Shown: positions 1-62,130, counted from the first letter of the stretch. The stretch: DNA of 64,000 nt from Polyangiaceae bacterium (GCA_016712345.1 JADJRH010000002.1:8466-72465), one strand, 5' to 3'. Translations and numbers: made by a program. The notes: generated by a model from the letters alone, not told the origin.

Positions 1-274
1 CGAAGCGACGAAACCAATGAACCAATGGAGCTCCATTCAATGGATCTCCACTCAACTTCACCGCACCACCTGACATACTATTCAGAGCAGTAGAAAAATC
101 CGCCTCACAAACATGCTTCTTGCCAAGTTCAGGATCCCAACCGAAGCGTAAGATTCCGGCAGCAAATTCGCCGGATGTGGCGCAAAAACAGGCACAACAA
201 CGCTTTCTCACTCCCAAGATTGACGGCGCCTTCTGAGAAAAAACATGAGCGCCTCTACCCAGAAAATTCTGTGG
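1..274 (-). repeat. 3' part of an ORF-less cassette, family N4 (truncated by window edge)
   Basis: Matches the last about 270 nt of cassettes 57150..58311, 58413..59591 and 60894..62061. Confidence 0.6.
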
Positions 275-375
275 GCCCAACGTGGTATTCTGCTGCGGGC
301 AGGCGGCGCAAGCAGAGCGGACGAAGGACGCTCTGCGCAGCAAGCCTGACCGACAGCAGCAATACCTGGTTGGAC
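275..375 (-). other. attC site 1 (family B)
   Basis: GCCCAAC...GTTGGAC boxes. Arms GGTATTCTGCTGCGGGCAGG / CCTGACCGACAGCAGCAATACC. Extra unpaired bases in the 3' arm. Confidence 0.7.
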
Positions 376-857
376 ATCCCAAGCTCCGAGCCCCACCGTT
401 TAGGATGAGGCTGAGACATGGTAGCTGACCGACGCGTCGTATACAACACGGAATCACGGAGGACACGGAGGAGCACGGAGGATTTGGGTAAAAAGACGAA
501 TCGAAACGCTAAGCCATGTCGTTGAGCACGTGCCGACAAGAAAGTCGATGAGGGTGCCGCGAGCCGAGGAGCAGCGCATCGTAGGGAGCGTCCAACCCAT
601 GCGCTGGTCGATGGCGCAGGGCAGGGCGTCGAGCCCGAGCGAGGTGGTGAAGGGGCAGGTGAAGGGGCAGACCAAAGCGGACGAAGCCAAGGGAGCGGCT
701 GCGCTCCACGGCCGTCCCGCCGCCTCTGACGCACGGGTGAAAAGAGCAAAGAGGAATCGCTGTTTTCTGGGTGAAATTGGGAGGCATCGGGGGGAGCACG
801 AAACCGACGGTCGAATGGACGCAACTCGAAGAGGGCCAAAACCGATAGATCTTCAGG

Positions 858-953
858 GGTGTCCGCAAGGGCCGGCCGGGGAGTCGCCCAGAAAGAGGAC
901 TCGAAGAGAGCAGGGCGGAGAGGGCGACTCCCCGGCCGGCCCTTGCGGACACC
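858..953. repeat. Perfect 32-bp inverted repeat (hairpin with 32-nt loop) upstream of GxxExxY gene
   Basis: GGTGTCCGCAAGGGCCGGCCGGGGAGTCGCCC ... GGGCGACTCCCCGGCCGGCCCTTGCGGACACC. Copies lie near 26425..26520 and 37160..37255. Confidence 0.85.
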
Positions 954-1056
954 CTGCGAGCCAATCGAGCGCGCCGCGTCGAAAAGTTGCGCCCAATGGG
1001 TAGGAATGGTCCTCCCCCGAAGCCCTGAAACCACCCGAGAACAAGAGCGTCTCCCC

Positions 1057-1431
1057 ATGCTGTTATACAAGGAGTTGAGTCAAGAGGTGGTGGGAGCGGC
1101 GTTGGAAGTGCACCGTCACCTGGGGCCAGGTTTGCTGGAGTCGGCCTATGACCATGCGCTATGTCATGAGCTTGGGCTTCGACGGCTGCACTACCGTCGA
1201 CAAGTGGAAGTGCCAGTCCACTACAAGGGCGTGGTACTCGGCTCGTGGCTGCGCATGGACCTTTTGGTCGAAGAGCGAATCGTCGTGGAAGTCAAAGCGG
1301 TCGAACAGTCTCTACCCATCCACGGTGCTCAACTGCTGACTTACCTTCGACTCAGTGGTTATCGCGTCGGTCTGCTGATAAACTTCAACTCGTTACATCT
1401 GAAAAGTGGCATCGTGCGTCGGGTGATCTGA
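1057..1431 (+). CDS. GxxExxY protein (PD-(D/E)XK nuclease-like, TIGR04256-type), copy 1
   Basis: 124 aa beginning MLLYKELSQEVVGAALEVHRHLGPGLLESAYDHAL...LLINFN, the canonical GxxExxY family pattern. Identical copies lie at 26624 and 37358. Confidence 0.8.
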   Translation: MLLYKELSQEVVGAALEVHRHLGPGLLESAYDHALCHELGLRRLHYRRQVEVPVHYKGVVLGSWLRMDLLVEERIVVEVKAVEQSLPIHGAQLLTYLRLSGYRVGLLINFNSLHLKSGIVRRVI

Positions 1432-2795: not shown

Positions 2796-2896
2796 CCTTA
2801 ACGTGGCAATCTGCTGCAAGCCCCAAAAGCAAGCAGAGCGGCCGAAGGACGCTCTGCGCAGCGTTGGGGATTGCCAGCAGCATTGCCGAGTTAGGT
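2796..2896 (-). other. attC site 3 (family A)
   Basis: CCTTAAC...GTTAGGT boxes. Arms GGCAATCTGCTGCAAGCCCC / GGGGATTGCCAGCAGCATTGCC. Central CAGAGCGGCCGAAGGACGCTCTG hairpin. Confidence 0.75.
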
Positions 2897-3980
2897 ACCT
2901 GACTCCCAACAAAGTGTTTTCGAATTTGTAACGCCGCACGCCGCGTTTTGAAGGGAGGAGCCGATTCCCAATTGTGTACACGAGGCAAACTCACGAACGC
3001 CGATTCGGTGTGTACACAAATCAGATTTCGAGACGCCAAGCCCACCGAAAACCTCCGCGCGAAACGAATACTACCTGTCTCAACCGGCCTGTCAACGCTT
3101 TCGAGCATGTCACCAGCGCCACCAAAATTGACGCCCACTTCACGCAACGTGGCACACGACGGGAAAGCCAAACCGCGACCACGCGGTTTGGTCCTTGAGA
3201 CAAATCTGAACGCGCCGAAATGTTGGCGAGATGGAAAACCTGCCTCTCCGAAACACAAGCTGGCTTTCGCCGAAGGCGTATAGGAAACGCTGACAATCAG
3301 GCCGTTTCGTCGATCTACCCACGCGCTCCCAACTGCGCGGTCTTCGCTCCGAATGTGTACACGGAGTGTCGACGGACACGAGGCCTCTCAGGGGCGAACC
3401 CGAAGTACAAGTAAGCTCATCCGAAGGCGCAAATGAAGCGTTTTGAGCAACGCTCCGATTCAAAAAAGAACAATGCCGCACCGAATATCAAGCGAAGCGC
3501 GATATTTGTGTACACGCACTGCGGCCACGCGTGCCGGCGTGTTTGCGTTGTTACACGAACGCCCTGAAAAGAAGCGAAGCGCGACAAATGTACCCATAAA
3601 AACCTACCCATGGCCGATTGCGCACATGTGGGTACACACAAACTTTTCGGACGAAATGAGCGCCTATCAAAGCAAAGTGATTTTCAAATGAGTCATACTG
3701 CCCACGATGTGTCGCATCGAACCCAAATCCGTCAACTCCAAATCTACCCACGGTCGGACATGGTTAGATCATGAATTGATAATGGATTAGAAGATACCCC
3801 ACCGGATGAACTACCGGTTGTCGCGGGAGTATAATTTTTGAACTTACCCACCCTCAACCCGAGCGCCGGTGAAGAACGATCAGGACATGCAAAATCCCTC
3901 GCAAAAGAGCCTCCGCGCACCAACTACCCACGTGCGCTTTCCGACAAAATTCAAGCGATTCTACCCACAAAATTCTGTGT
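2897..3980 (-). repeat. ORF-less cassette payload, family N1
   Basis: No ORF is conserved across copies. Shares TTTTCGAATTTGYAACGCCGCAC, TGTGTACAC palindromes, AAGCGAAGCGCGA and CTACCCA motifs with at least 9 other cassettes. Confidence 0.6.
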
Positions 3981-4080
3981 ACCTAACGTTGCGGTGTGCT
4001 GCGGCCGGGCGGCGCAAGCAGGGCGGACGAAGGACGCCCTGCGCAGCAAGCCCGGCCGTCAGTACCAGCGCATGGTTGGG
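3981..4080 (-). other. attC site 4 (family C)
   Basis: ACCTAAC...GTTGGGC boxes. Arms TTGCGGTGTGCTGCGGCCGGGCGG / CCCGGCCGTCAGTACCAGCGCATGG. Confidence 0.7.
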
Positions 4081-5183
4081 CACCTTGTGCTGGATGGGTT
4101 GTTTTCGAATTTGCAACGCCGCACCCCGCGTTTTGAAGGGAGAACGCCACCGCGACAAATGTACACAAGGCCATCTCACTGGCGATGATTGAATGTGTAC
4201 ACTTTTCAGCCTTGCCGCTATCAACCCCACCGTGTCCTCCGCACAATCCGTAGACTATCTGTATCAAAATGGCGGTCAAGCGCAATCTGCCCTACGAGGG
4301 TGATGCACTCGGGGTGCGCGGCCCGAACGCCGACGTCTCAAAATGTCGTGCGTACACTCGACCCACTCCGACACCGAAAATAAATTCATGAGGCCGAGCC
4401 GCGGCCTACGCGCGGCTTGGCCCTTCGAGTGCGCACGAGGGGTATCGAAGGGAGTGAGTTCTCGACGCGAGGGACCGAAATACAAGTTGGCTGACCCGAA
4501 GGCGCAAAATGAAGCGTTTCGCAAACCCGTGCGGCTAGAAAAAATACACCACGGGATCTGACATCCAGCGAAGCGCGATATTGCGTACACGCTCCGCGGC
4601 TGCGCACGCCAGCGTGTTTCCGTTGTGTCGCGGCGCTGCGAAAACAAGCGAAGCGCGACAAGTGTACCCATCAAGACCTGGCCAATGCCATTTCGTACAC
4701 GTGGGTACGCATGAACCTCTCGGGGAGAAATGGACCGCTGACCGATGAAACGAAGCTGATAGTTGAACAACCGCGCCCCCAAACAGAGGCACAGAAATCA
4801 GTCGAATCTCCACCTTCGAATCTACCCACTTCACCAACCAACTTGAACGCAAATTGAAGGTGAAGTGATGCAGCAGCTCCGACACAATTCTGGGTCGCTT
4901 CTTTTGTACAATATGACCGCGGATCTACCCATTCAATTGATCGACGTTGCACCAGTTGAGAAGAGGTAGATGCGAGAGAAAGTCCTTCAAAATGCGCCTC
5001 TACCCACCCGCAGGGCGTCAGTCTCTCTGTAAAAACAAACCTACCCATCGCGCCACTTCATCGAGCCGTTGGTGAGGAACAGTCAAGGTGCGCGCCGACC
5101 TTAAGAAAAGCGTCTCGATCGGTCCACTACCCATACCGCTTTCAGAAAAAAACGAAAACGACTCTACCCACAAAATTCTGTGT
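4081..5183 (-). repeat. ORF-less cassette payload, family N2
   Basis: Homologous to 20081..21179 and 59693..60791. Confidence 0.6.
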
Positions 5184-5287
5184 GCCCAACGCGCGCTTGT
5201 GCTGCAAGCCCCGAGAGCAAGCAGAGCGGCCCGACAGGGACGCTGTGCGCAGCGTCGGGGCTTGTCAGAACCAAGCGCTGGTTGGGC
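5184..5287 (-). other. attC site 5 (family G variant)
   Basis: GCCCAAC...GTTGGGC boxes. Arms TTGTGCTGCAAGCCCC / GGGGCTTGTCAGAACCAAG. Confidence 0.65.
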
Positions 5288-5312
5288 AGCATTCTCTCCC
5301 TATCGATATTCA

Positions 5313-6437
5313 CTACCAATCCTCCTCGCGTATAACTTCTCGCTCAATAAGGAGCGCCAAAGCATCCGCCATGTCGGTGAGTATCAATCGATCTTCTTTG
5401 GGTATGAGAGCGATCCTGCCCCGCTCACTCTGAGATGTCGTGGCCTGGTTATCAATTCGAATGGTAAGGGAACGAAACTCATAGCTCCACGTGCCAACCA
5501 TCCTGGCTTCCGACCCATGAAAATGCGCGTGGAGCTTGTGAGGCGTCGACGTGTACAGCGTTTTACCCGGCAGAAAGCGGAACGCGCATCCTCCTACGCC
5601 GCCCTTGCGAACGGTTCGAAGAATAGACTCCAATACTGCAAGTGACATGTCCGCCAGTCGCGGATCAGCACGAAACTCCAGCTTGCTTTCTTCGACGTAC
5701 ATACGAGCGCCGTAGAAGTAGATGCTTGACTCACCCACGTCGTGTTGGGGGCGACCAATAAAATTCCATTGTACATCGCCTGATTGTTGTTGCATTCCGC
5801 CTTGCAGATACTGGTGCTCGACTCCCAGCTTCTGGAGCGCCTCCGCGGTTATCTCGATGATTCGCGACGGCGGCTCGGTCGCACCGCTCTCGCGAGTGAG
5901 CGTCACACGGATGTCGTCAATGAACGCCGAGTGGCGAGCCAATGCTCCAGTTCTCGCGCCCGACTCGGTGCGAAAGAACTCGTTGTATTCATCTAGTGAA
6001 AATACCTGCGCGTGCTGATGTCCGAACTCCTCATTGGACACCGCGATCAAATTATCTAGGCCGTCGGGCGACGTTATGTTGAATCCTTGAAGGAGGCTGA
6101 TCGGTGGTGGAAGCTGCGTCAGGTCGACCCCGAAGATGCCGACCGGGATGACCCGAACTCCTTTCGCGTAAACGAAGCCAGCTTCGAAGTACACCCACCT
6201 TGAATCGAGTGACGCTGGCGATAAGAAGACGATCATAAGGGTAGCTCGTTCAAGAGCTTCCTGGACCTTGTGTACCCAATTTCGCCCGAGTGGAATGCTC
6301 TGACCGTCACTGGATAGAAACACGTCAATGGTTCCACCGGTCTTCGCCACGAACATCTGCTTTAGACGAGTAAGTCTGTCTTTGTCCCGCGGTGAGTGGC
6401 TGAAGAAAACCGTGGGTTTGCTCTTGCTCTTGCTCAT
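5313..6437 (-). CDS. TIR-domain protein with uncharacterised about 230-aa C-terminal domain
   Basis: 374 aa. N-terminus VFFSHSPRDKDRLTRLKQMFVAKTGGTIDVFLSSDGQSIPLGRNWVHKVQEALERATLMIVFLSPASLDSRWVYFEAG is a bacterial TIR pattern, including the conserved Glu. First gene of a three-gene minus-strand operon inside a single cassette. Confidence 0.75.
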   Translation of the reverse strand: MSKSKSKPTVFFSHSPRDKDRLTRLKQMFVAKTGGTIDVFLSSDGQSIPLGRNWVHKVQEALERATLMIVFLSPASLDSRWVYFEAGFVYAKGVRVIPVGIFGVDLTQLPPPISLLQGFNITSPDGLDNLIAVSNEEFGHQHAQVFSLDEYNEFFRTESGARTGALARHSAFIDDIRVTLTRESGATEPPSRIIEITAEALQKLGVEHQYLQGGMQQQSGDVQWNFIGRPQHDVGESSIYFYGARMYVEESKLEFRADPRLADMSLAVLESILRTVRKGGVGGCAFRFLPGKTLYTSTPHKLHAHFHGSEARMVGTWSYEFRSLTIRIDNQATTSQSERGRIALIPKEDRLILTDMADALALLIEREVIREEDW

Positions 6438-6579
6438 CTTCTAACCGTGTGATGTAGCAGCTTCTGCCGTGTTCCCCAATGTCTTGCCTGCCCAACGTTG
6501 TTTTCTGCTGTGGACGGGTGAGCAACGCGAGCCCGGCCATCAGCAGCAAAACAGTGTTCGGCGGCTCTCCCGTTCTCGC

Positions 6580-7080
6580 TCATGTTCCACGGTGAGTATT
6601 CTTGTGTTCCGACGTGGTGTAGATTCGTGCTCGGCACTCTTGTTCCAGAATGCGCCGGATCTCATCCTTCGAGCGGGTACCGAGCAATTTGTCAGTGAGC
6701 TCGCGCCGCGACACGACATGGTGATGAGCCAGACCAGCGACGCGCTTCTTTGAATGGCGAACTGCTGCTACTTGTCGTGCAGTGGCACTGGTTTCGTGGT
6801 GGGATGGGTCATACTTGCAGTGGTCGAGCTTTACTACGCCGTCCACTTCGCCATCCGCCGTCCATCTCCAAAGCGCCCAATCTGAGATAATGTGGCGTGC
6901 AATCTCTCTGCAGGGGTGGCGACTGTCCTGTGCCGTGCACACGGCTCGGAAAATTATTTCGATTAGCCATTCCCGGGCGCCGGGACTCAGTCGGGCCGCG
7001 ACCTCGGGAGGCACGTCCGTGTGCACGGACTCCGTGCCTGCCGTCCTTCTGCGCCTCTTAACCGGTGACCGATGGGGCAT
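6580..7080 (-). CDS. Hypothetical Arg-rich protein (middle gene of TIR operon)
   Basis: 166-aa ORF lying between the two flanking genes, starting 27 bp after the upstream gene's stop. No family recognised; start and reading frame are uncertain. Confidence 0.4.
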   Translation of the reverse strand: MPHRSPVKRRRRTAGTESVHTDVPPEVAARLSPGAREWLIEIIFRAVCTAQDSRHPCREIARHIISDWALWRWTADGEVDGVVKLDHCKYDPSHHETSATARQVAAVRHSKKRVAGLAHHHVVSRRELTDKLLGTRSKDEIRRILEQECRARIYTTSEHKNTHRGT

Positions 7081-7106
7081 ATGTCAAGTTTCCAGGTTTT
7101 AAAAAA

Positions 7107-7871
7107 CTACCGGGCGGCCTTGCGCTTACTCATGAAGTCAATCAGATCTTTGACGGCAGCGTCGGCAAGAGCGTCTGTTGCCACGTCCGCAGCGCGCACT
7201 CGACGGACCTCTACTCCTTCGTGCGTGAGCGGAATAAGACGCTTGTCCGCATCCGCTGGCGTCTCGTGATGGAAGGTGTCGCCATCGACTTCTACGACGA
7301 AGGTAAGCCCCTTAAAGATCACGACAAAGTCTGGCTCAAGGCGATGGTAGCTCTTCCCGACTCGTACAAACACGGGCAAAGGTGCAACCGCCAGCCGCGC
7401 ACGCTGCATTGCCTCAAACAGCGTAATTTCGGCACGCGAGCGAAACAATAAGCCACGGTGTTGCTGAGATGCGATATTGTCACTACGCACTCGGCCCTGG
7501 TTAGTGACCCCCTCCCCGCGGACGAATTTGAGCGCGTCCTCGCGCCAACCCTCGGGCGCTGGTACAACCGTTGGGCTCACGCTGACCCATCCGAGACAGT
7601 CACCAGGCGACGCGGAGAAGAAGGACTGGCCTACCTCGAGCACTGCGCTCTCTACCTGCTTCACCTCGGCCTCGGTGAGGGCGTGGAAGATGTGGATAGG
7701 GAGTCCAATGCGTAGGCCCCAGTTGTCCACGCCCCAGTCCGTATCGAGATGCTCGAACCTGCTGCCAATGCCCTCCAGGACGACCGCGATAGACCTGGTG
7801 TCGCCACGGATCTTGAGCGCTGCGGTGACAGATGCGAGAAAGTCCTCAATTGGAAAGGGACGATTGCTCAT
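7107..7871 (-). CDS. Protein with C-terminal DUF559/Vsr-like (PD-(D/E)XK) endonuclease domain
   Basis: 254 aa. C-terminal half LFRSRAEITLFEAMQRARL...PDFVVIFKGLTFVVEVDGDTFHH...DADKRLIPLTHEGVEVRRV matches the DUF559 endonuclease pattern (EVDG...H...D..R). N-terminal domain is unknown. Confidence 0.6.
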   Translation of the reverse strand: MSNRPFPIEDFLASVTAALKIRGDTRSIAVVLEGIGSRFEHLDTDWGVDNWGLRIGLPIHIFHALTEAEVKQVESAVLEVGQSFFSASPGDCLGWVSVSPTVVPAPEGWREDALKFVRGEGVTNQGRVRSDNIASQQHRGLLFRSRAEITLFEAMQRARLAVAPLPVFVRVGKSYHRLEPDFVVIFKGLTFVVEVDGDTFHHETPADADKRLIPLTHEGVEVRRVRAADVATDALADAAVKDLIDFMSKRKAAR

Positions 7872-7939
7872 CTTGCTTCCTCCCTACTTCTCTCTTCTCT
7901 TCAACGAATTGACCAATTGAACTGGGCGCAGCCCTGCCC

Positions 7940-8030
7940 GCTGAACGTGGCAATCTGCTGCAAGCCCCAAAAGCAAGCAGAGCGGCCGAAGGACGCTCTG
8001 CGCAGCGTTGGGGTTTGCCAGCAGCATTGC
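7940..8030 (-). other. attC site 6 (family A)
   Basis: Degenerate CTGAAC box at the 5' end, GTTAGGT box at the 3' end. Family A arms. Confidence 0.65.
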
Positions 8031-9068
8031 CGAGTTAGGTACCTGACTCCCAACAGAGTGTTTTCGAATTTGTAACGCCGCACGCCGCGTTTTGAAGGGA
8101 GTAGCCGATGCCCAATTGTGTACACGAGGCAAACCGACGAGCGCCGACTCGGTGTATACACAATTTTGACTTCGCGCTGCCAGACCCACCGAGAACCTCC
8201 GCGCGAAACGAATACTACCCGTCTCAACCGGGCTGTCAACGCTTTCGAGCATGTCACCAGCGCCACCAAAATTGACGCCCACCTCAAGCAACGTTGTCCA
8301 AGATCGGGCAGACCAAACCGCGACGGCCCGCTCTGTCCACGAAAAACGCACGAAGGTGCCGAAATGTTGGCGAGATGAAAACCAACCTGCGCGAAACAGG
8401 AAACGCCTACAAGCGGGCAGTTTCGTTGATCTACCCATGCGCTCCCAACACGGAGTGTCGACGGACACGAGGCCTCTCAGGGGCGAACCCGAAGTACGAG
8501 GAAGCTCATCCGAAGGGGCAAATGAAGCGTTTTGAGCAACGCTCCGATTCAAAAAGAACAATGCCGCACCGAATATCAAGCGAAGCGCGACACTTGCGTA
8601 CACGCACCGCGGCCACGCATGACAGCGTGGTTATGTTGTTGCGCGAACGCCGCAAAAAGAAGCGAAGCGCGACAAATGTACCCATAAAAACCTACCCATG
8701 GCCGACTGCGCACATGTGGGTACACACAAACTTTTCGGACGAAATGAGCGCCTATCAAAGCAAAGTGATTTTCAAATGAGTCATACCGCCCACGGATGTG
8801 TCGCATCGAACCCAAATCCGCCAACTCCAAATCTACCCACGGTCGGACATGGTTAGATCATGAATTGATAATGGATTATGAAGATACCCCACCGGATGAA
8901 CTACCGGTCGTTGTGGGAGTATAATTTTTGAACTTACCCACGCTCAACCCGACCGCCGGTGAAGAACATCAGGATATGCAAAATGCCTCGCAAAAGAGCC
9001 TCCGCGCACCAACTACCCACGTGCGCTTTCCGACAAATTCAAGCGATTCTACCCACAAAATTCTGTGT
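8031..9068 (-). repeat. ORF-less cassette payload, family N1
   Basis: Collinear with 2897..3980. Confidence 0.6.
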
Positions 9069-9235
9069 ACCTAACGTGGCATTCAGCCGCAAAGGCCGCA
9101 TCCCGCAACGTGTCAGGTGGGAAGAGGGAAGCCGCCGAGCCACATCCGTAAAACTTAAAAAAAGTGCTCGGCGGCGCCCCGTGCGAGACGTGACCGGATG
9201 CGACGGCCTTTGTCGGCTGCAATGCCGAGTTAGAC
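9069..9235 (-). other. attC site 7 (family L)
   Basis: ACCTAAC...GTTAGAC boxes. Long palindrome as in site 2. Confidence 0.65.
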
Positions 9236-9565
9236 CTCTGGGGGCTCATATTTCCCACGACCGGGCCAGTGTATTCCGAATCTGAATCTGTAGTCAACGG
9301 TGAAAAAAAGTTACGTTCCATTCCGCACAGTTGAGTCGCCTTGCAGTCTAATTTTTCGAATCGCGTCCATTTTGCGCAACACCCCCAATGGCCTTGATGG
9401 ATACTGACTTTCTGACTTTTCCACTCGACTGTCAGGTTAGAAAGGCGGTGTACACAACCACGGTGTTGTGTCAATCAGTTTATACAAAATAAAACGGAGC
9501 CGCCCGGTGCTTGCAACACCGAACGGCCCCTTGACCTGCCCCCCGCAGCAACGGAGAGCAAGCCC
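9236..9565 (+). promoter_or_regulatory. Conserved about 330-bp leader/promoter region of sigma-factor cassette (paralog 1)
   Basis: Conserved in all six sigma cassettes. Contains GTCAAC-N15-CGTTCC, an ECF -35/-10-like element, and an ACACAAC-N4-6-GTTGTGT hairpin before the RBS. Confidence 0.4.
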
Positions 9566-52367: not shown

Positions 52368-52482
52368 GGTGCGTTTTTCCGTGCACTCAATTGTGCGGCG
52401 AACGAAATTCCAACTCGCGATCGAGTAGTCAAGACGGGAGACTTTTGATACATGACTCCTGAGCGCCGCTCATCAAGTTGAA

Positions 52483-53238: not shown

Positions 53239-53411
53239 GGCTCTCCATCACAACGTGCACGACGACATTCGAGGTGTACTGCCCAGCAGAGTACCCCACA
53301 TTCTGAATCAGACCGACGCTTCTGGTTACTCCCTTTTTGACCACACCCGCCATCTCCTATTCCAACCTTAGACGGTCAGTCGACAACCCCCGGAAAGAAC
53401 GTGCTTTGCCC

Positions 53412-53515
53412 ACCCAACGTGGGGTTGTGCTGCAAGCCCCGTGAGCAAGCAGAGGGGCGCGTCAGCGACGCTCTGCGCAGCGCCGGGGCTTGTCAGAACC
53501 AACCCCTGGTTGGGC
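53412..53515 (-). other. attC site 40 (family G)
   Basis: ACCCAAC...GTTGGGC boxes. Family G arms. Confidence 0.7.
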
Positions 53516-54558
53516 ACCATGCTCTGGGTAGACTGCTCACGCATTTTCACCACCTCCCGCCTTGTTTTGACGGGGAAATGCGCCTGCGATAAATGTACAC
53601 AAGGCCGTCCAAATGAAGAACGCCGGGTGTGTACACTGGTCAAGTTTCGCGCCATAACCCACCAACCGCTGCGTACGCCTCGTAGACTACGCGGATCAAA
53701 TTGACCGTCAAGCACAATCTGTGACCGCAAGAGTGATGTGCTCGGGGCTTCCACGCATGACGTCGACCTCAGGAGAGCCCCGGTGTACACACGACCGCGC
53801 GCGAATCGAAAAGAAAGCAGGAAGGCCGAGCCGCGGCCTACGCGCGGCTTGGCCCTTCGAGCGCGAACGCGAAGTATCGAATGCAAAGACGCCTCGCCGT
53901 GAGGAACCGAAATACAAGGTGGTTTATCCGAAGGTGCGAATCAAGCGCTTCGAAAAACCGCACGGCTTGCGGAAAAAACATCACCGCATCTGACACTCCG
54001 CGAAGCGCGATATGTGTACACGCACCGAAGTTACCCATGCCGACGTGTTGGCGACCGCACGCGGATGCCGACAAAAACAAGCGAAGCGCGACAAGTGTAC
54101 CCATGTGAAGGCCGTCCGAATTATTGTGTACACGTGGGTACATTCTACCTTTTCGAAAAGAAGCGAAGCGCGACTCGTGGGGCAACCGTTTCGACTCAAC
54201 AATACCGCTGCTGGAGCGAAGCGACCAAACCCCGTGACGGACTGCGCCTCCATTGAAATTGGACCCCTCCACTCAACAGTCAACCAGTCAACCAGTCAAC
54301 CAGTCAACCAGTCAACCAGTCAACCAGTCAACCAGTCAACCTTACCGCCCCACGCGATATGTTATTTCCGAGGGTAGAAACATCTCTCTCGCAGACACGC
54401 TCATTGTCAAATTCAGAATCGCAACTGAAGGGTAAGATAGCAGGTAAAGCTTGATCAAATGTGCCTTCAAAATAGACTCAACAACGCTTCCTCAAGCCAA
54501 GGCCTGACACTGCCTTTCTGGGAAAAAAGATGAGCGCCTCTACCCAGAAATTCTGTGT
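53516..54558 (-). repeat. ORF-less cassette payload, family N3
   Basis: Collinear with 21284..22299. Octamer array present. Confidence 0.6.
54279..54341. repeat. Tandem octamer array (GTCAACCA)x8
   Basis: Same array in an N3 cassette. Confidence 0.8.
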
Positions 54559-54659
54559 GCCCAACGTGGTATTCTGCTGCGGGCAGGCGGCGCAAGCAGG
54601 GCCGACGAAGGAGGCCCTGCGCAGCAAGCCTGCCCGTCAGCAGCAATACCGAGTTATAC
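54559..54659 (-). other. attC site 41 (family B variant)
   Basis: GCCCAAC box at the 5' end, degenerate GTTATAC box at the 3' end. Arms GGTATTCTGCTGCGGGCAGG / CCTGCCCGTCAGCAGCAATACC. Confidence 0.6.
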
Positions 54660-54706
54660 GCCGACATCTTGAAATTCCCATTGCCACAGCGAAAGCCGAG
54701 GGACAC

Positions 54707-55096
54707 TCACCAGATGGTAGCAAGCCCAGGACAATCCAAGATTAGATGATCCGAAGTTACGACCGGAATGCCTTCGAGAATCGCTGTTGCCACGATGATG
54801 CGATCAGCGGGATCATTGTGAGTGAGAGGCACCTCACAAGAGTACACCGCGATCGTTGAAGAAACCGGAATTTCGAGCAAACTAAAGGCGCTAACAGCGT
54901 GCATGAACCAGTCGCGGACCGGCCGCGTCAGCGCGAGTTTTCCTTTTCTGACCTTCACGGCAATTTCGAACGCGCTGATTGCAGAGACAAGAAGCTGCGT
55001 ATCCTTCTTGGACAGTGCATCGAGAGCCGCATCGGAGAGCTGTTCTCGATCATCCGCGAGCCAAAGAAGGGCACAAGTGTCGAGTAATAGCCTCAC
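54707..55096 (-). CDS. vapC: PIN-domain toxin VapC
   Basis: RLLLDTCALLW...SAFEIAVK...IPVVTSD gives the PIN acidic residue pattern. GTG start. Overlaps the upstream antitoxin by 4 nt. Confidence 0.8.
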   Translation of the reverse strand: MRLLLDTCALLWLADDREQLSDAALDALSKKDTQLLVSAISAFEIAVKVRKGKLALTRPVRDWFMHAVSAFSLLEIPVSSTIAVYSCEVPLTHNDPADRIIVATAILEGIPVVTSDHLILDCPGLATIW

Positions 55097-55383
55097 GGCC
55101 GAAACTCCGCTGGCCAGTCATTCTCGTCCAATGGAGCATTAGGATTTTCATGAAAAAGAACTGGCCCGAGAGTCAAATCTCTTGGAAATCGCTGGGCGAG
55201 AGCTTGCAAAAGGGCGCTTCGCTTGTGCGTGGGAGGTTCGCGCGTTTCGGACCTCGTTGGGATTGCAGCTGCCGCTTCGGATAGAATGATAACTTCAGCA
55301 TTACCCGCAGGAAAATCTGACGGCAATCGTACAACGACGTCGGCACTTGGCTCCGCCATGATCTTGATTTTGTGAGCGTACAT
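55093..55383 (-). CDS. vapB: Putative VapB-type antitoxin
   Basis: 96 aa, start overlapping vapC. Contains MAEPSADVVVRLPSDF, an antitoxin-like N-terminus. An alternative start lies at 55359. Confidence 0.5.
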   Translation of the reverse strand: MYAHKIKIMAEPSADVVVRLPSDFPAGNAEVIILSEAAAAIPTRSETREPPTHKRSALLQALAQRFPRDLTLGPVLFHENPNAPLDENDWPAEFRP

Positions 55384-55861
55384 TTGGGCGACCGCTCCTT
55401 AGCTGATAATAGTACGAGTTCAGTCTGCGGTATGTCAAGGAATGGTTGGTTGTCGGCGGGCTGCACAACGTGGCTCGCCACTCTGACCCCGCGGCTCGCT
55501 GTGGTGAGGCAATTTTTGGGGGCTGCGACGCGCGTTGGAGCAAAAGCAGCCGAATCATCGAGCTGCGCGCAGCTCGCGAGCCGTTCAACTACCCGCATGA
55601 TTTTTCTACCGTCTTGCGCGCTCCCTTTCGCTTACCCATGCGTGTAGTGCAGTGCAGCGAGGTGGGGACACGTACTGCTGGCGGCCTTGGCGACATGGAC
55701 TCGACGTTGGGAGGGTGTATAAATTCTTCGTGTCGTTTTCCGCGTTCATACCCTTGATGGGATCTCTGTGCCACGCGGAGCAAGAAAAAAGCAGTTTGTT
55801 GGGTTGATAATCCTTACCGCAACATTCGCCTTACCGCATTCTGGCGCGCTCTACTCAGTGC

Positions 55862-55962
55862 GTATAACGTGGCAATCTGCTGCAAGCCCCAAAAGCAAGC
55901 AGAGCGGCCGAAGGACGCTCTGCGCAGCGCTGGGGTTTGCCAGCAGCATTGCCGAGTTAGGT
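55862..55962 (-). other. attC site 42 (family A)
   Basis: GTATAAC...GTTAGGT boxes. Family A arms. Confidence 0.7.
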
Positions 55963-57048
55963 ACCTGACTCCCAGCAGAGTGTTTTCGAATTTGCAACGC
56001 CGCACGCCGCGTTTTGAAGGGAGGAGCCGATTCCCAATTGTGTACACGAGGCAAACCCACGAACGCCGATTCGGTGTGTACGCAAATCAGATTTCGCGTC
56101 GCCAAACCCACCGAAGACCTCCGCGCGAAACGAATACTACCTGTCTCAACCGGCCTGTCAACGCTTTCCCGCACGTCGCGAAAAGCCCAAGTCGACGCTC
56201 ATCGGAGGCAACATGGCACACGACGCGAAGGCCAGATCGTGACAACGCGGTTTGGCCCTTGAGACAAATCGGAGCGCGCCGAAATGTTGGCGAGATGGCA
56301 CCAGCCTCCGCGAAGTACAACTTGCATTTCGCCGAAGGCGTATTGGAAACGCCAGAAAACCAGGCCGTTTCGTTGATCTACCCATGCGCTCCCACCTGCG
56401 CGGCCTTCGCCCCGAATGTGTACACTAAGTGTCGTTTGACATGAGGCATCTCAGGGACGAATCCGAAATACAAGTTGGCTTATCCGAGGGCGCAAATGAG
56501 GCGTTTTGAGAAACGCTCCGATTCAAAAAGAACAACGCCGCACCGAGCCTCATGCGAAGCGCGATATTTGTGTACACGCACCGCGGCTGCGCGTGCCGGC
56601 GTGTTTGCGTTGTTACACGAACGCCTTGAGAAGAAGCGAAGCGCGACAAGTGTACCCATGAAAACCTACCCATGGTCGACTGCGCACGCGTGGGTACACA
56701 CAAGCTTTTCGAACGAAATGAGCGCCGGTCAAAGCAAAGCGGTTTTTCAAAGGAGTCACACCGCCCACGGATGTGTCGCATCGAAACCGAACGGCCAAGT
56801 CCAAATCTACCCACGCTTAGCCATGGTCAGATCGTGAATTGATAACGGATTGCGAAGATAACCCCACCAGATGAGCGATCGGTCGTCGCGGGAGTAGAAT
56901 TTCGCACGTACCCACCTCGCTCCTCAATGCGACTGCCGGGGTGAATAGTCAGAATATGCAAAGTACCCCCCAAAAAGCCTCTACTCACCAACTGCCCAAG
57001 TCCACATTCTGACAAAATTCAAGCGATTCTACTCACGAAATTCTGTGT
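55963..57048 (-). repeat. ORF-less cassette payload, family N1
   Basis: Collinear with 39102..40182. Confidence 0.6.
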
Positions 57049-57149
57049 ACCTAACGTGGTATTCTGCTGCGGGCAGGCGGCGCAAGCAGGGCGGACGAAG
57101 GACGCCCTGCGCAGCAAGCCTGGCCGACAGCAGCAATACCTGGTTGGGC
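57049..57149 (-). other. attC site 43 (family B)
   Basis: ACCTAAC...GTTGGGC boxes. Family B arms. Confidence 0.7.
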
Positions 57150-58311
57150 CCCGACTTTGATGTAACTTGGCATTCGAGTTGTAATGTCGCCGGCCGTTCT
57201 CCCTGAAAGATCGCCGACCTGACAGAACGACTTCGTGCGACAAAACTTGGCATACGTGCTGGGCTGCGTGTGTACACATTTGCGCTCGACAAATCCACAT
57301 CGCGCGCCGCGTTTCCCGCCGAGTTGCCTGTCACACCACGAATACTACCTGTACGCGAGGTGCCGTCAAGTGCGATTTTCGGGCGCTTATCACCCCACGA
57401 ACGCACCGCAACGGAGTGTACCTTTTCGCCCGAGGCTCCCAAGATGGGTAGAAGGCTGCGCTGCGTCCTCCGCGTGTACAAGGAGTATCGATTGTGGTTG
57501 TGCTCGCCGGGAGGAACCGAAACACAAGGCTGCTGATCCGAAGGCGCACATCAAGCGTTTCAAACCCCACGCGGTTTGTAAAAAACAGAAAATCGTAATC
57601 CAAAAGAAGCGAAGCGCGATATGTGTACAAGCATCGAAGCTACCCATGCCGACGTGTTGGCGACTGAACAGCGATGCCAAGAAAAACAAGCGAAGCGCGA
57701 CAAGTGTACCCATGTCAAGGCTACCGGAACTCGTGTGTACACATGGGTACATGCTACCTTTTGAAAAGATGCGAAGCGCGACTCGTGGAGAAACCGTCGC
57801 GGCTTTGCAACACCGCAGTTGGAGCGAAGCGACGAAGGGCTGATCACATAAGTCTGATTCGACTCAACTTCACTGGTCTACCTGACTTAATGTGACCTGA
57901 CCCTCTCCTTCACAACCGTAACAAATTGCTTTTCAATCTCGGGATTCCGGCAAAGGGTAGGGTGCCGTAACAAATTCACCGAATACGGAACGGAAAATAG
58001 ACTCAACAAGGTTTTCTACCCAACACCGCTGTTGGCGCGAGGTGACGAAACCAATGAACCAATGGATCTCCCTTCAATGGATCTCCACTCAACTTCACCG
58101 CGCCACCTGACATGCTATTCAGATCGGTAGAAAAACCCGCCTCAGAAACATGCTTCTTGCCAGATTCAAGTCCCAACCGAAGCGTAAGATTCCGGCAGCA
58201 AATGCACCAGATGTGGCGCGAAAATCAGGCTCAACAACGCTTCCTCACCCCAAGGACTGACGGCGCCTTCTGAGAAAAAACATGAGCGCCTCTACCCAGA
58301 AAATTCTGTGG
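57150..58311 (-). repeat. ORF-less cassette payload, family N4
   Basis: Three tandem N4 cassettes lie nearest attI. Shares the N core. Confidence 0.6.
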
Positions 58312-58412
58312 GCCCAACGTGGTATTCTGCTGCGGGCAGGCGGCGCAAGCAGGGCGGACGAAGGACGCCCTGCGCAGCAAGCCTGACCGACAGCAGCAAT
58401 ACCTGGTTGGGC
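58312..58412 (-). other. attC site 44 (family B)
   Basis: GCCCAAC...GTTGGGC boxes. Family B arms. Confidence 0.7.
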
Positions 58413-59591
58413 CCCGACTTTGATGTAACTTGGCATTCGAGTTGTAATGTCGCCGGCCGTTCTCCCTGAAAGATCGCCGACCTGACAGAACGACTTCGTG
58501 CGACAAAACGCGGCATACGCACTGGGCTGCGCGTGTACACATTTGCGCCCGACAAATCCACATCGCGCGCCGCGTTTCCCGCCGAGTTGCCTGTCACGCC
58601 ACGAATACTACCTGTACAAGAGGTGCCGTCAAGTGCGATTTTCGGACGCTCATCGCCCCACGAACGCACCGCGACGGAGTGCACCTTTTCGCCGGAAGCT
58701 CCTACGATGGGTAAAAGGCTGCGCCGTGGCCTCCGCATGTACAAGGAGTATCGATTGTGGTTGTGCTCGCCGCGAGGAACCGAAATACAAGGCTGCTCAT
58801 CCGAAGGCGCACATCAAGCGTTTCAAACCCGGCGCGCTTTGTAAAAAACAGAAAATCGTAATCCAAAAGAAGCGAAGCGCGATATGTGTACACGCACCGA
58901 AGCTACCCATGCCGACGTGTTGGCGACTGAACGGGGATGCCGAGAAAAACAAGCGAAGCGCGACAAGTGTACCCATGTCAAGGCTACCGAAACCCGTGCG
59001 TACACATGGGTACATTCTGCCTTTTGAAAAGATGCGAAGCGCGACTCGTGGAGAAACCGTCGCGGCTTTGCAACACCGCAGTTGGAGCGAAGCGACGAAA
59101 GGGCTGAGCAGATAAGTTTGATTCGACTCAACTCAACTCAACTCAAACTTCACTGCTCAACCTGACTTAATCTGACCTGACCCTCTCCTTCACAACGGCG
59201 ACAAATTGCTTTTCAATCTCAGGATTCCGGCAAAGGGTAGGGTGCCGTAACAAGTTCACCAAATACGGCCGGAAAAATAGGCTCAACAAGGCTCTCTACC
59301 CAACACCGCTGTTGGCGCGAAGCGACGAAACCAATGAACCAATGGATCTCCATTCAACGGATCTCCACTCAACTTCACCGCGCCACCTGACATGCCATTC
59401 AGATCGGTAGAAAAATCCGCCCCACAAACATGGTTCTTGCCAAATTCAAGATCACGATCGAAGCGTAAGATTTCGGCAGCAAATTCACCAGATGTGGCGC
59501 GAAAATCAGGCTCAACAACGCTTCCTCAGCCCAAAGACTGACGGGGCCTTCTGGGAAAAATATGAACGCCTCTACCCAGAAAATTCTGTGG
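58413..59591 (-). repeat. ORF-less cassette payload, family N4
   Basis: Collinear with 57150..58311. Confidence 0.6.
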
Positions 59592-59692
59592 GCCCAACGT
59601 TGCGGTGTGCTGCGGCCGGGCGGCGCAAGCAGGGCGGACGAAGGACGCCCTGCGCAGCAAGCCTGGCCGTCAGTACCAGCGCATGGTTGGGC
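59592..59692 (-). other. attC site 45 (family C)
   Basis: GCCCAAC...GTTGGGC boxes. Family C arms. Confidence 0.7.
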
Positions 59693-60791
59693 ACCTTGTG
59701 CTGGATGGGTTGTTTTCGAATTTGCAACGCCGTATCCCACGTTTTGAAGGGATGACGCGATCGCGACAAATGTACACAAGGCCATCTCGATGGCGACGAT
59801 TGAATGTGTACACTTTTGAGCATTGCCGCTATCAACCCCACCGTGTCCTCCGCACAATCCGTAGACTATCTGTATCAAAATGGCAGTCAAGCACAATTTG
59901 CCCTGCGAGAGTGATGCACTCGGGGTGCGCATCCACAACGCCGACGTCTCAAAATGTCGTGCGTACACTCGACCCACTCCGACACCGAAAATAAATTCAT
60001 CAGGCCGAGCCGCGGCCTACGCGCGGCTTGGCCCTTCGAGTGCGCACGAGGAGTATCGAAGGGAGTGAGTTCTCGACGCGCGGGAGCAAAATACAAGTTT
60101 GCTCACCCGAAGGCGCAAAATAAAGCGTTTCGTGAACCCGTGCGGCAAGAAAAAATACACCACCGGATCTGACATCCAGCGAAGCGCGATATTGCGTACA
60201 CGCTCCGCGGCTGCGCACGCCAGCGTGTTTCCGTTGTGTCGCGACGCTGCAAAAACAAGCGAAGCGCGACAAGTGTACCCATAAAGACCTGGCCAATGCC
60301 ATTTCGTACACGTGGGTACACATGAACCTCTCGGGGAGAAATGGACCGCTGACCGATGAAACAAAGCTGATAGTTGAACAACCGCGCCCCCGAACAGAGG
60401 CACAGAAATCAGTCGAATCTCCACCTTCGAATCTACCCACTTCACCAACCAACTTGAACGCAAATTGAAGGTGAAGTGATGCAGCAGCTCCGACACAATT
60501 CTGGGTCGCTTCTTTTGTACAATATGACCGCGGATCTACCCATTCAATCGATCGACGTTACACCAGTTGAGAAGAGGTAGATGCGAGGGAAAGTCCTTAA
60601 AAAAGCGCCTTTACCCAAGCGCAATCCGCGTCAGTCTCTTTGTAAAAACGAACCTACTCACTTTGCCACTCGACCAAGCCGCGGGTGAGGAACAGTAAGG
60701 TGCGCACCACCTTGGAAAAGCGCCTCGAACGGTCAACTACCCATACCGCTTTCTGAAAAAACTAAAACGACTCTACCCACAAAATTCTGTG
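59693..60791 (-). repeat. ORF-less cassette payload, family N2
   Basis: Collinear with 20081..21179. Confidence 0.6.
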
Positions 60792-60893
60792 TGCCCAACG
60801 TGGTATTCTGCTGCGGGCAGGCGGCGCAAGCAGGGCGGACGAAGGACGCCCTGCGCAGCAAGCCTGGCCGACAGCAGCAATACCTGGTTGGGC
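60792..60893 (-). other. attC site 46 (family B); belongs to first (attI-proximal) cassette
   Basis: GCCCAAC...GTTGGGC boxes. Family B arms. Confidence 0.7.
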
Positions 60894-62055
60894 CCCGACT
60901 TTGATGTAACTTGGCATTCGAGTTGTAATGTCGCCGGCCGTTCTCCCTGAAAGATCGCCGACCTGACAGAACGACTTCGTGCGACAAAACGCGGCATACG
61001 CACTGGGCTGCGCGTGTACACATTTGCGCCCGACAAATCCACATCGCGCGCCACGTTTCCCGCCGAGTTGCCTGTCACGCCACGAATACTACCTGTACAA
61101 GAGGTGCCGTCAAGTGCGATTCTCGGGCGCTCATCGCCCCACGAACGCACCGCAACGGAGTGTACCTTTTCGCCGGAAGCTCCCAAGATGGGTAGAAGGC
61201 TGCGCCGTAGCCTCCGCATGTACAAGGAGTATCGAGGGTGGTTGTGCTCGCCGGGAGGAACCGAAATACAAAGCTGCTCATCCGAAGGCGCACATCAAGC
61301 GTTTCAAACCCCGCGCGGTTTGTAAAAAACAGAAAATCGGAATCCAAAAGAAGCGAAGCGCGATATGTGTACACGCACCGAAGCTACTCATGCCGACGTG
61401 TTTGCGACTGAACGGCGATGCCGAGAAAAACAAGCGAAGCGCGACAAGTGTACCCATGTCAAGGCTACCGAAACTCGTGCGTACACATGGGTACATTCTG
61501 CCTTTTGAAAAGAAGCGAAGCGCGACTCGTGGAGAAACTGTCTCGACTTGGCAACGCCGCTGTTGGAGCGAAGCGACGAAAGGCCGAGCAGATAAGTTTG
61601 ATTCGACTCAACTTCACTGCTCTACCTGACTTAATCTGACCTGACCTCTCCTTCACAACGGTAACAAATTGCTTTTCAATCTCAGGATTCCGGCGAAGGG
61701 TAGGGTGCCGTGACAAATTCACCAAATACGGCACGAAAAAATAGACTCAACAAGGTTTTCTACCCAACACCGCTGTTGGCGCGAGGCGACGAAACCAATG
61801 AACCAATGGATCTCCATTCAACGGATCTCCACTCAACTTCACCGCGCCACCTGACATGCCATTCAGATCGGTAGAAAAAATCCGCCTCACAAACATGCTT
61901 CTTGCCAAATTCAGGATCCCAACCGAAGCGTAAGATTCCGGCAGCAAATTCACCAGATGTATCTGAAAATCAGGCTCAACAACGCTTCCCCACCCCAGAG
62001 ACTGAGGGCGCCTTCTGGGAAAAAACATGAGCGCCTCTACCCAGAAAATTCTGTG
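60894..62055 (-). repeat. ORF-less cassette payload, family N4 (first cassette next to attI)
   Basis: Collinear with 57150..58311. Ends at the GCCCAA|C boundary adjoining the putative attI. Confidence 0.6.
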
Positions 62056-62130
62056 GGCCCAACGTGTAATGGGCAGTTCCGCGGGGCGGGGCGAGACTGG
62101 AGGAACGCCAATGATGGACTGCGGAAAGTG
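62056..62130 (-). other. Candidate attI site (junction of first cassette with the intI-proximal region)
   Basis: The array ends at GCCCAA|C (about 62056-62062). Next comes GTGTAATGGGC; on the top strand this reads GCCCATTACAC-GTTGGGC, which resembles the attI1 simple site GCCCTAAAACAAAGTTAGGC. Base composition changes abruptly just beyond this point. Confidence 0.5.

Follow-up and report, generated by a model that had tools for sequence, protein, structure and literature searches.

What element fills most of a 64,000-nt stretch of DNA from a Polyangiaceae bacterium (GCA_016712345.1, JADJRH010000002.1:8466-72465; hereafter the window), where imperfect palindromes separate units of one to two kilobases, and what is the role of the many units that hold no gene? 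The window lies on a 738,087-bp contig of a metagenome-assembled genome (MAG) from the Myxococcota (locus tags IPK82_*), and from the size of this contig we infer that it is chromosomal. An earlier note, made from the sequence of positions 1-62130, had proposed a giant sedentary integron with ~46 cassettes, about 24 of them lacking a credible open reading frame (ORF). The analysis described here arrives at a sedentary chromosomal integron (SCI) of at least 47 cassettes, whose gene-less members are read as regulated promoter cassettes. As an overall explanation of the locus, this is given a probability of roughly 85%.

The integrase and the attI junction

The array is bordered by intI, an integron integrase gene for a 337-aa product (62628-63641, - strand) that lies just beyond the positions covered by the earlier note. 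The reading frame is intact, and its product matches TIGR02249 over profile positions 2-313 of 315 with 395.7 bits, against a curated cutoff of 265. It is identical to NCBI MBK8255056.1, which is named 'integron integrase'. The product aligns end to end with VchIntIA, the solved integrase of Vibrio cholerae (2a3v; E 1.4e-78), and the alignment includes the IntI-specific segment (KxPxAxxxWxWxxxFP...RRHH) as well as the catalytic HxxR and Y motifs. The closest relatives among GTDB species representatives share 52-57% identity and belong to many phyla (Acidobacteriota, Gemmatimonadota, Eisenbacteria, and others).

The predicted attI junction is at 62062|62063. The box found there (62057-62063, GCCCAA|C on the + strand) complements exactly the GTTGGGC right box of the array's last recombination site (60793-60893), and no hairpin follows it. 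The attI region is placed at 62063-62130 on the - strand, with an undefined right-hand limit. A 565-nt spacer (62063-62627), 45% C on the sense strand, lies between attI and the intI stop codon, and a promoter scan returned no consensus promoter between intI and attI. Except for short motifs, this platform (62063-64000) has no similarity to the cassettes.

The attC sites

The recombination sites of the array (attC) were located by a scan for RYYYAAC...GTTRRRY pairs combined with single-strand DNA folding, which returned 43 strong hairpins. A relaxed scan of the gaps added one site (24961-25061). Alignment of the six copies of a repeated unit gave three long sites of 167 nt (1471-1637, 9069-9235, and 11630-11796). 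A covariance model trained on 37 sites of the array finds exactly 47 attC in the window, all on the + strand with 51-112 bits, while the - strand reaches only 14-44 bits. The imperfect palindromes reported in the earlier note were thus recovered, as 47 sites, by the box-plus-fold scan and the model. The sites are 73-168 nt long, and the 44 folded sites of 73-104 nt have hairpin energies of -21 to -58 kcal/mol (DNA).

The consensus fold consists of 30 pairs, and pairing at 21 of these is preserved through double changes, which bears out the compensatory arm changes noticed earlier. Two bulged bases are found at alignment columns 83 and 90, in the 3' arm of the + strand. Along this strand, a site is composed of R' (5' RYYYAA|C), L', a variable terminal structure, L'' with two extrahelical bases, and R'' (GTTRRRY 3'). 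The unpaired central spacer is short, with 2 nt in each arm. According to Nivina et al. (PMC5027507), R' of the attC bottom strand reads 5'-RYYYAAC-3', and the extrahelical bases lie close to L''. Folding of the predicted bottom strand, a check that the earlier note had suggested, displays the R and L boxes and the extrahelical bases on the R''/L'' arm.

The number of attC types depends on the threshold. Clustering gives 16 groups at 90% identity and 11 at 80%, in keeping with the more than 10 families counted previously, and only 5 at 70%. All of the sites align to one consensus with a mean column identity of 73%. Judged by this alignment, they are sub-types of a single consensus and not more than 10 unrelated families.

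The array-trained model was also applied to loci around independent intI genes in other genomes, where it finds 84 sites (E up to 0.01), mostly in arrays that adjoin intI. Most of these loci share the window's strand relation to intI, and a few have the classical divergent layout. The model also matches an attC on a metagenome contig, beside a remote homologue of the putative extracytoplasmic function (ECF) sigma gene that six cassettes of the window carry. In a Candidatus Eisenbacteria MAG (locus L010, 14955-15686), three matches with identical scores recur every 316 bp. These 316-bp units are very short repeated cassettes, which are probably gene-less as well.

Polarity and layout of the array

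The window contains 47 complete cassettes of 1099-2239 bp (median 1262) and a partial one at its left edge, close to the ~46 first estimated. The spacing is irregular, and the array is therefore not a satellite; an equally spaced satellite without R boxes, the alternative named in the earlier note, is at odds with this spacing and with the R boxes that are present. The range of 1.0-2.7 kb given earlier was correct in its irregularity, and its upper figure stemmed from the three missed 167-nt attC sites.

Three independent kinds of evidence bear on polarity: homology breaks, the extrahelical bases described above, and other integrons. The ends of self-BLAST matches between paralogous cassettes in different neighbourhoods cluster at the left-box AAC and are very rare at the right-box GTT. 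As a separate hallmark of cassettes, the right box of one site is perfectly complementary to the left box of the next at 42 of 47 junctions, whereas complementarity of the boxes within a site is perfect in only 7 of 47 (permutation p < 1e-4). This is the pattern expected if a circularized cassette rebuilds its own attC; two of the five non-complementary junctions come from an end coordinate set one base too far on long attC sites. At the intI loci of other genomes, the strand matched by the model is the intI strand when the array is upstream of intI (the classical arrangement; L018, L044, and L059) and the opposite strand when the array is downstream (L010, L007, L011, L013, L020, and others). 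The homology breaks, the extrahelical bases, and the other integrons together indicate that the + strand is the recombinogenic bottom strand. The sense strand of the cassettes is therefore the minus strand, which is shared with intI. The array lies 3' of intI with its cassettes co-oriented with this gene, the 'inverted integrase' layout. As this arrangement predicts, the genes of most coding cassettes are on the minus strand.

Identical cassettes are found beside different neighbours, and self-comparison sorts the 47 cassettes into 21 families, 8 of which are multi-copy. According to established integron biology, IntI would act on folded bottom strands, excising cassettes through attC x attC recombination and re-inserting them at attI. 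Such excision and re-insertion may have duplicated and shuffled the cassettes, multiplying some of them, to produce the 21 families. The array extends past the left edge of the window, where bases 1-280 (- strand) are the 5' part of a gene-less cassette with 91% identity to two complete ones (K44 and K47). Ahead of the window there is one more sigma copy, MBK8254982, whose accession precedes that of the first copy inside it by ~14 genes.

The attC and integron signature claimed in the earlier note is upheld by the intact IntI, the attI-type junction, the 47 co-oriented attC, the breaks at AA|C, and the R-box complementarity across cassettes. These features support the integron reading, in which the repeats are real recombination sites.

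Gene-less cassettes lack a coding signal

Nearly half of the array, 22 complete cassettes and the partial one, is without coding signal. This is close to the ~24 ORF-less cassettes of the earlier note, which are not independent of one another: they form one paralogous superfamily of mutually homologous units of 1.1-1.35 kb, with 10, 6, 3, and 3 copies in families 1, 3, 4, and 5, in addition to the partial one. The gene-less cassettes have no GC-by-codon-position signature, and no ORF, small ORFs included, is conserved across their families. No 3-nt substitution periodicity was detected in any of these families (best windows p 0.04-0.37), while the sigma family, which served as the positive control, gives 4:1:28 (p 2e-9). 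Indels among the paralogues are mostly not multiples of three. The longest ORFs have no Pfam match, and an exact look-up of these ORFs, with those start codons, in the protein collection found them absent; the look-up does not address other ORFs called by the Prokaryotic Genome Annotation Pipeline (PGAP). The literal definition of a gene-less cassette as one with no ORF >70 aa (PMC11014356) does not hold for these cassettes, because DNA of 55% G+C yields chance ORFs of 100-230 aa.

Cassettes are numbered so that K47 is the first after attI and K01 the leftmost complete one; all lie on the - strand, and each is given here with its attC and the score of that site. Family 1 is composed of K43 (55868-57054; attC 55862-55962, 105.8 bits; promoter motif 56161-56131), K38 (49736-50913; attC 49730-49818, 79.9 bits; promoter motif 50016-49986), K34 (44300-45456; attC 44294-44394, 112.3 bits; promoter motif 44593-44563), K33 (43122-44299; attC 43116-43204, 77.0 bits; promoter motif 43402-43372), K30 (39007-40188; attC 39001-39101, 107.7 bits; promoter motif 39299-39269), K27 (35298-36646; attC 35292-35380, 79.9 bits; promoter motif 35578-35548), K24 (30688-31937; attC 30682-30770, 79.9 bits; promoter motif 30968-30938), K09 (10499-11635; attC 10493-10593, 109.9 bits; promoter motif 10792-10762), K07 (7946-9074; attC 7940-8040, 106.6 bits; promoter motif 8239-8209), and K03 (2802-3986; attC 2796-2896, 106.3 bits; promoter motif 3095-3065).

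Family 3 includes K41 (53418-54564; attC 53412-53515, 104.3 bits; promoter motif 53711-53681), K37 (48637-49735; attC 48631-48734, 105.7 bits; promoter motif 48930-48900), K26 (34177-35297; attC 34171-34274, 102.5 bits; promoter motif 34471-34441), K22 (28166-29286; attC 28160-28263, 104.7 bits; promoter motif 28460-28430), K21 (27044-28165; attC 27038-27141, 104.5 bits; promoter motif 27338-27308), and K17 (21186-22305; attC 21180-21283, 106.0 bits; promoter motif 21480-21450). Cassettes of this family carry a tandem octamer, TTGACTGG on the sense strand, at 22018-22082, 27870-27942, 29005-29063, 35002-35074, and 54269-54341. It is present in 7.4-9.2 copies ((TTGACTGG)x9 in K41), a count that varies from paralogue to paralogue as it would in a microsatellite prone to slippage.

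The members of family 4 are K46 (59598-60798; attC 59592-59692, 106.6 bits; promoter motif 59890-59860), K16 (19986-21185; attC 19980-20080, 106.7 bits; promoter motif 20278-20248), and K04 (3987-5189; attC 3981-4081, 107.2 bits; promoter motif 4279-4249). Family 5, to which the partial cassette belongs, has K47 (60799-62062; attC 60793-60893, 109.1 bits; promoter motif 61113-61083), K45 (58318-59597; attC 58312-58412, 110.0 bits; promoter motif 58632-58602), and K44 (57055-58317; attC 57049-57149, 107.2 bits; promoter motif 57369-57339).

A predicted promoter in every gene-less cassette

The gene-less cassettes share a 5' block on the sense strand (ACACAGAATTT..TGGGTAGA) and a ~330-nt core composed of GTACAC-N3-TCGCGCTTCGC units and GTGTACAC palindromes. 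A 22-nt core motif, GGGTACANTTGTCGCGCTTCGC, is invariant in all 22 complete members. Each of the 22 also has a sigma-70-like element in sense orientation, directed toward the attC and the next cassette. This element is TTGACn-16 nt-TAGTAT in families 1 and 5 and ends in TAGTCT in families 3 and 4. The -35 and -10 hexamers are invariant, and the sequence of the spacer between them varies. In the form TTGAC-N12-AC-N3-TAGTnTnCG, the motif occurs 24 times in the window, always on the - strand, against 0.01 occurrences expected. It precedes the attC by 166-169 or 189-190 nt, with two GTGTACAC palindromes after it. The same motif is found behind the HNH gene in K13 and K14 (15930-15960 and 17424-17454, - strand), again 189-190 nt before the attC, and the promoter module is thus not confined to gene-less cassettes.

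The GTGTACAC palindrome has 64 sites in the window (e.g., 2974, 3010, 45768, and 63885) against 0.6 expected, and these cluster in the gene-less cassettes. From this recurrence, GTGTACAC may be a shared operator. One copy is located ~245 nt upstream of intI, beside a CGCTTC-T-run that resembles the core motif of the cassettes.

Given these sequence features, the gene-less cassettes are most likely promoter or regulatory cassettes. They would act as regulated promoter units that restart sense transcription of the cassettes downstream, far from any platform promoter, and the GTGTACAC palindromes would be operator sites for a dimeric DNA-binding protein. The first cassette after attI, K47, is itself promoter-bearing.

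A structured RNA in the core is not supported: the RNAalifold signal is weak, the core folds no better than shuffled sequence, and the terminator-like folds are inconsistent. No structure as RNA or single-stranded DNA is detectable in the core, for which a group of sites in double-stranded DNA is the better reading. In the metagenome collection, GGGTACANTTGTCGCGCTTCGC has 0 matches, and the 5' block has 22 matches, none with an attC, which were judged to be chance.

Points against the promoter reading and alternative explanations

Several points weigh against an integron with promoter cassettes as described above. The -10 element is weaker (TAGTCT) in families 3 and 4, and the promoter-bearing cassettes are not more evenly spaced than chance (p 0.17 and 0.38). 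The promoter is only ~30 nt of a 1.2-kb unit and does not account for the conserved core, and promoter activity is read from consensus match and conservation. The attC covariance model was derived from this very array and is not the model of IntegronFinder. The extrahelical bases of the sites are T/C/A and C, where the canonical ones are G and T. The median pairwise identity of the attC sites is 66%, and the attC sites of Vibrio SCIs are more uniform than those of the present array. Finally, gaps in the NCBI accessions (MBK8254992 to MBK8255056) imply one or two PGAP hypothetical genes per gene-less cassette. The public annotation probably holds spurious gene calls in these cassettes.

The repeats themselves could be some other dispersed palindrome, such as repetitive extragenic palindromes or bacterial interspersed mosaic elements (REP/BIME), miniature inverted-repeat transposable elements (MITEs), a satellite, or a CRISPR-like array. 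Dispersal at ~1.1-2.2 kb under one consensus would suit such elements, yet this explanation is effectively refuted already: the palindromes are irregularly spaced, with shuffled modules in the DNA between them, the RYYYAAC/GTTRRRY boxes are complementary across cassettes, paralogues lose homology at AA|C, the array is flanked by an intact IntI gene and an attI-type junction, and the same model finds arrays beside other intI genes. An assembly artefact, in which long-read indel errors in the repeats of the MAG would have broken real genes, is very improbable as the source of the missing ORFs. The equally repetitive sigma cassettes keep 6 of 6 ORFs at exactly 252 aa, and substitution columns, which are immune to sequencing indels, have no third-position excess in any gene-less family. 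No frame-length ORF that was tested has a family match. These results outweigh the many single-base gaps between paralogues and the MAG contigs of 0.74 and 5.2 Mb, from which a long-read assembly may be suspected.

Two other explanations accept the integron and differ on the gene-less cassettes. These could be selfish or decaying DNA, or gene remnants, copied by IntI and bearing motifs without a role for their neighbours; Boucher et al. raised the possibility of selfish elements for the non-coding cassettes of Vibrio (PMC1382264). Identity within families is 90-100%, which fits recent duplication; variable tandem repeats abound in the 5' halves; the positions of these cassettes along the array are indistinguishable from random; and the core motif is without homologue in the metagenome collection. 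This explanation is nonetheless unlikely, as the families differ by 20-30% and yet retain discrete invariant blocks, the hexamers are fixed while the spacer varies, the distance from promoter to attC is fixed, and the same promoter module stands behind the HNH gene of K13 and K14. The cassettes have no remnant coding periodicity, which argues against a recent pseudogene. The other explanation is an overlooked product, either a structured non-coding or small RNA or small or unusual proteins, and it is quite unlikely. Rfam gives no relevant match in the window at the gathering threshold, nor when E is relaxed to 1, RNAalifold recovers little shared structure from either strand, and the folding of the core does not differ from shuffled sequence (z -0.17 and -0.09). 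The core does contain a conserved 10-nt inverted repeat, TGTACCCAYG...CATGGGTACA, and a GCGCTTCG...CGAARCGC pair, and mismatches in the core pairs would be G-T wobbles on the + strand; these candidate helices are invariant and so give no support from covariation. The length of the units (1.1-1.35 kb, with ~330 nt of conserved core) would suit a product of either kind. For a protein, the PGAP hypothetical genes suggested by the accession gaps stand against the lack of a conserved ORF, codon periodicity, or Pfam match and against frame-breaking indels.

Comparison with known integrons

An SCI is expected to have more than 20 cassettes on a chromosome, and the present array has 47 complete ones inside the window. 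The V. cholerae superintegron is the SCI archetype (VchIntIA, VCR). The present locus shares with it an IntI-type integrase and a predicted attI followed by a long one-directional array, a consensus attC with bottom-strand hairpins and extrahelical bases, and paralogous cassettes together with toxin-antitoxin, defence, and orphan cargo. It differs in its Myxococcota host, an intI that is co-oriented rather than divergent, cassettes that are long and uniform in size (median 1262 bp), lower attC identity (median 66%), the 2-nt-per-arm central spacer, and the non-canonical extrahelical bases. Co-direction of intI and the cassettes, with the array 3' of intI, is shared with the 'inverted integrase' group of integrons (PMC3575428), for example that of Treponema denticola. 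This likeness is one of layout. The same layout is found in most of the closest intI relatives (52-57% identity), and the host phylum here differs from that of the classical examples.

Non-coding cassettes make up 6-49% of Vibrio arrays; V. vulnificus, at 49%, has non-coding paralogues that number 34-45 copies (Boucher et al. 2006, PMC1382264). Sense promoters of gene-less cassettes have been shown experimentally in Vibrio SCIs (Blanco et al. 2024, PMC11014356) and in Treponema integrons (Tansirichaiya et al. 2019, PMC6557892). The earlier note had called the present arrays atypical; set beside these reports, they are less unusual, and a high share of paralogous non-coding cassettes is a pattern already known from V. 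vulnificus. The gene-less cassettes described here resemble those of Vibrio and Treponema in non-coding status, frequent paralogy, and a sense promoter (predicted here) for downstream cassettes. They differ in having one conserved promoter in every member at a fixed distance to the attC, and in being units of 1.1-1.35 kb with a motif-rich core and clustered GTGTACAC. What is distinctive at this locus is the Myxococcota host, an intI oriented like its cassettes, the long cassettes of even size, the single promoter module, and the multi-copy ECF sigma cargo. The locus extends the well-characterized large integrons to the Myxococcota with an intI co-oriented with its cassettes, and its 22 paralogous gene-less cassettes with one promoter are a clean natural case for expression of long arrays. 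The current understanding of integrons is not overturned.

Putative ECF sigma cassettes

Six cassettes encode an ORF of 252 aa on the antisense (+) strand, which is intact in all six. These are K08 (9075-10498; gene 9566-10324; long attC 9069-9235, 55.7 bits), K10 (11636-13056; gene 12126-12884; long attC 11630-11796, 55.6 bits), K12 (14286-15643; gene 14715-15473; attC 14280-14383, 103.5 bits), K15 (18632-19985; gene 19057-19815; attC 18626-18729, 105.5 bits), K35 (45457-46812; gene 45885-46643; attC 45451-45554, 103.3 bits), and K39 (50914-52269; gene 51340-52098; attC 50908-51011, 100.2 bits). Substitutions among the copies fall on the three codon positions at 76:75:153 overall and at 4:1:28 in the best window (p 2e-9). 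This third-position bias indicates that the sigma gene is real and under purifying selection.

The product is read from profile matches as a divergent ECF sigma factor. As a single sequence, it matches TIGR02937 over the full length with 23.4 bits (E 3.9e-5), which is below the cutoff of 42.9. An exhaustive search for homologues returned 49 cluster representatives at E < 1e-3. A profile of 23 homologues matches solved ECF sigma factors across both regions, including sigma-E (1or7; E 8.5e-8), SigH, and others, and the Pfam regions r2 and r4 are matched by 8-10 of the 23. In these profile-level sigma-2 and sigma-4 matches, the cassette protein and 22 remote homologues are like the ECF (group IV) sigma factors, such as sigma-E of E. 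coli (1or7) and SigH of M. tuberculosis. The cassette protein differs from them in scoring below curated cutoffs, in an N-terminal extension of ~60 aa, and in being encoded by an antisense gene that is multi-copy integron cargo. No anti-sigma gene is visible in the sigma cassettes.

The same MAG has at least 11 sigma copies on two contigs, four or five of them on the 5.2-Mb contig. A remote homologue with 38% identity (L103 404-1144, on a metagenome contig) follows an attC of the same type at a distance of 330 nt, and their relative orientation is also the same, so that the sigma family is cassette-borne elsewhere too. A multi-copy, cassette-borne ECF sigma factor is unusual cargo, and it suggests that integrons can move transcription machinery besides effector genes.

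In five of the six sigma cassettes, GTGTACAC occurs once, ~117 nt upstream of the sigma gene. The sole motif common to the leaders of the sigma cassettes and the gene-less cassettes is GTGTACACA(A). It was not found in the three contigs of remote sigma homologues with readable DNA, and a link between the sigma factor and this motif is therefore unsupported. On the sense strand, immediately beyond the 5' end of this antisense gene, there is a 15-pair, G+C-rich hairpin followed by GTTTTATTTT. This terminator-like hairpin of the top strand is at 45849-45816 (- strand) in K35, and the remaining sigma cassettes have it at the equivalent position. Transcripts reading through in antisense to the sigma gene could be stopped there.

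One regulatory circuit internal to the integron might connect the integrase with the gene-less cassettes and the ECF sigma factors of the array, including a mobile promoter-plus-operator module at no fewer than 23 copies, though such a circuit is a doubtful proposition. If it did exist, a single DNA-binding factor, or the cassette sigma factor, could switch expression and recombination of the whole array together, and the 330-nt core would represent a novel type of array for protein binding, borne as a cassette.

Other gene-bearing cassettes

The toxin-antitoxin modules, defence genes, and orphans named in the earlier note are present, as judged by domain matches in the cassettes. Toxin-antitoxin-like cargo is found in four. 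K02 (1477-2801; long attC 1471-1637, 53.8 bits) encodes a BrnT toxin (1924-2271, -; PF04365, E 5.7e-30). K42 (54565-55867; attC 54559-54659, 101.2 bits) encodes a PIN toxin (54707-55096, -; PF01850, E 1.7e-14) and, as its partner, an upstream ORF of 141 aa (55173-55598, -). K19 (23594-24966; attC 23588-23688, 102.5 bits) has a nucleotidyltransferase (24157-24849, -; PF18765, PF01909) with a partner ORF of 141 aa (23751-24176, -). K20 (24967-27043; attC 24961-25061) has a HicB-HTH antitoxin (25106-25882, -) together with a PD-(D/E)XK nuclease gene of the PDDEXK_3 type (26336-26998, +).

K20 is 2077 bp long, and its right half is homologous to K01 and K28, with no attC between the halves. It also flanks one of the few non-complementary box junctions (3 mismatches). 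By its composition, K20 is probably two cassettes, HicB-HTH and a nuclease of the K01/K28 type, that were fused after loss of an attC.

Defence-type and effector cargo includes K05, K36, K13, K14, and K25. K05 (5190-6495; attC 5184-5287, 97.1 bits) encodes a ThsB-like TIR-domain protein (5313-6437, -; MBK8254992.1; PF13676, E 4.6e-13). K36 (46813-48636; attC 46807-46907, 108.7 bits) encodes a SIR2-domain protein (46939-48582, -; PF13289, E 2.1e-11), which bears a strong likeness to the SIR2-APAZ proteins that partner short prokaryotic Argonautes (PADLOC Aga_SIR2-PNTD, E 1.6e-62); neither K36 nor the neighbouring cassettes contain an Argonaute gene. HNH endonucleases are encoded on the - strand within 16282-17136 in K13 (15644-17136; PF01844, E 1.4e-12; attC 15638-15741, 101.0 bits) and within 17777-18631 in K14 (17137-18631; attC 17131-17234, 101.5 bits), followed by the promoter motif at 15960-15930 and 17454-17424, respectively. 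K25 (31938-34176; attC 31932-32032, 98.9 bits) encodes a PAAR protein (33463-34044, -; PF05488, E 1.4e-11) and a protein of 454 aa (32094-33458, -).

Orphan ORFs, all on the - strand, are carried by seven cassettes. K06 (6496-7945; attC 6490-6562, 61.3 bits) has two (7107-7871 and 6580-7080), as do K23 (29287-30687; ORFs 29410-30051 and 30112-30663; attC 29281-29366, 51.5 bits) and K32 (41860-43121; 263 aa at 42296-43087 and 96 aa at 41979-42269; attC 41854-41954, 88.2 bits). K11 (13057-14285; attC 13051-13145, 62.0 bits) and its paralogue K29 (37778-39006; attC 37772-37866, 61.8 bits) each have an ORF of 343 aa (13229-14260 and 37950-38981). K31 (40189-41859; attC 40183-40280, 70.6 bits) has an ORF of 494 aa (40314-41798). 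The 251-aa ORF of K40 (52483-53238; cassette 52270-53417; attC 52264-52367, 96.9 bits) has a coding pattern of GC by codon position and no match in Pfam, NCBIfam, or PADLOC. The coding status of K18 (22306-23593; attC 22300-22400, 104.1 bits) is uncertain, and its ORFs are without family match.

Besides K20, antisense PD-(D/E)XK nuclease genes are found in K01 (281-1476; PDDEXK_3 gene within 859-1431, +; PF13366, E 2.3e-40; attC 275-375, 108.8 bits) and K28 (36647-37777; PDDEXK_3 gene 37289-37732, +; PF13366, E 1.1e-40; attC 36641-36741, 106.8 bits). A perfect 33-nt inverted repeat with a 32-nt loop is present at 857-954, 26424-26521, and 37159-37256, at the 5' end of each of these PDDEXK_3 ORFs and upstream of the nuclease domain. 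It has a sub-threshold chance match to an Rfam miRNA model and is the longest hairpin in the window.

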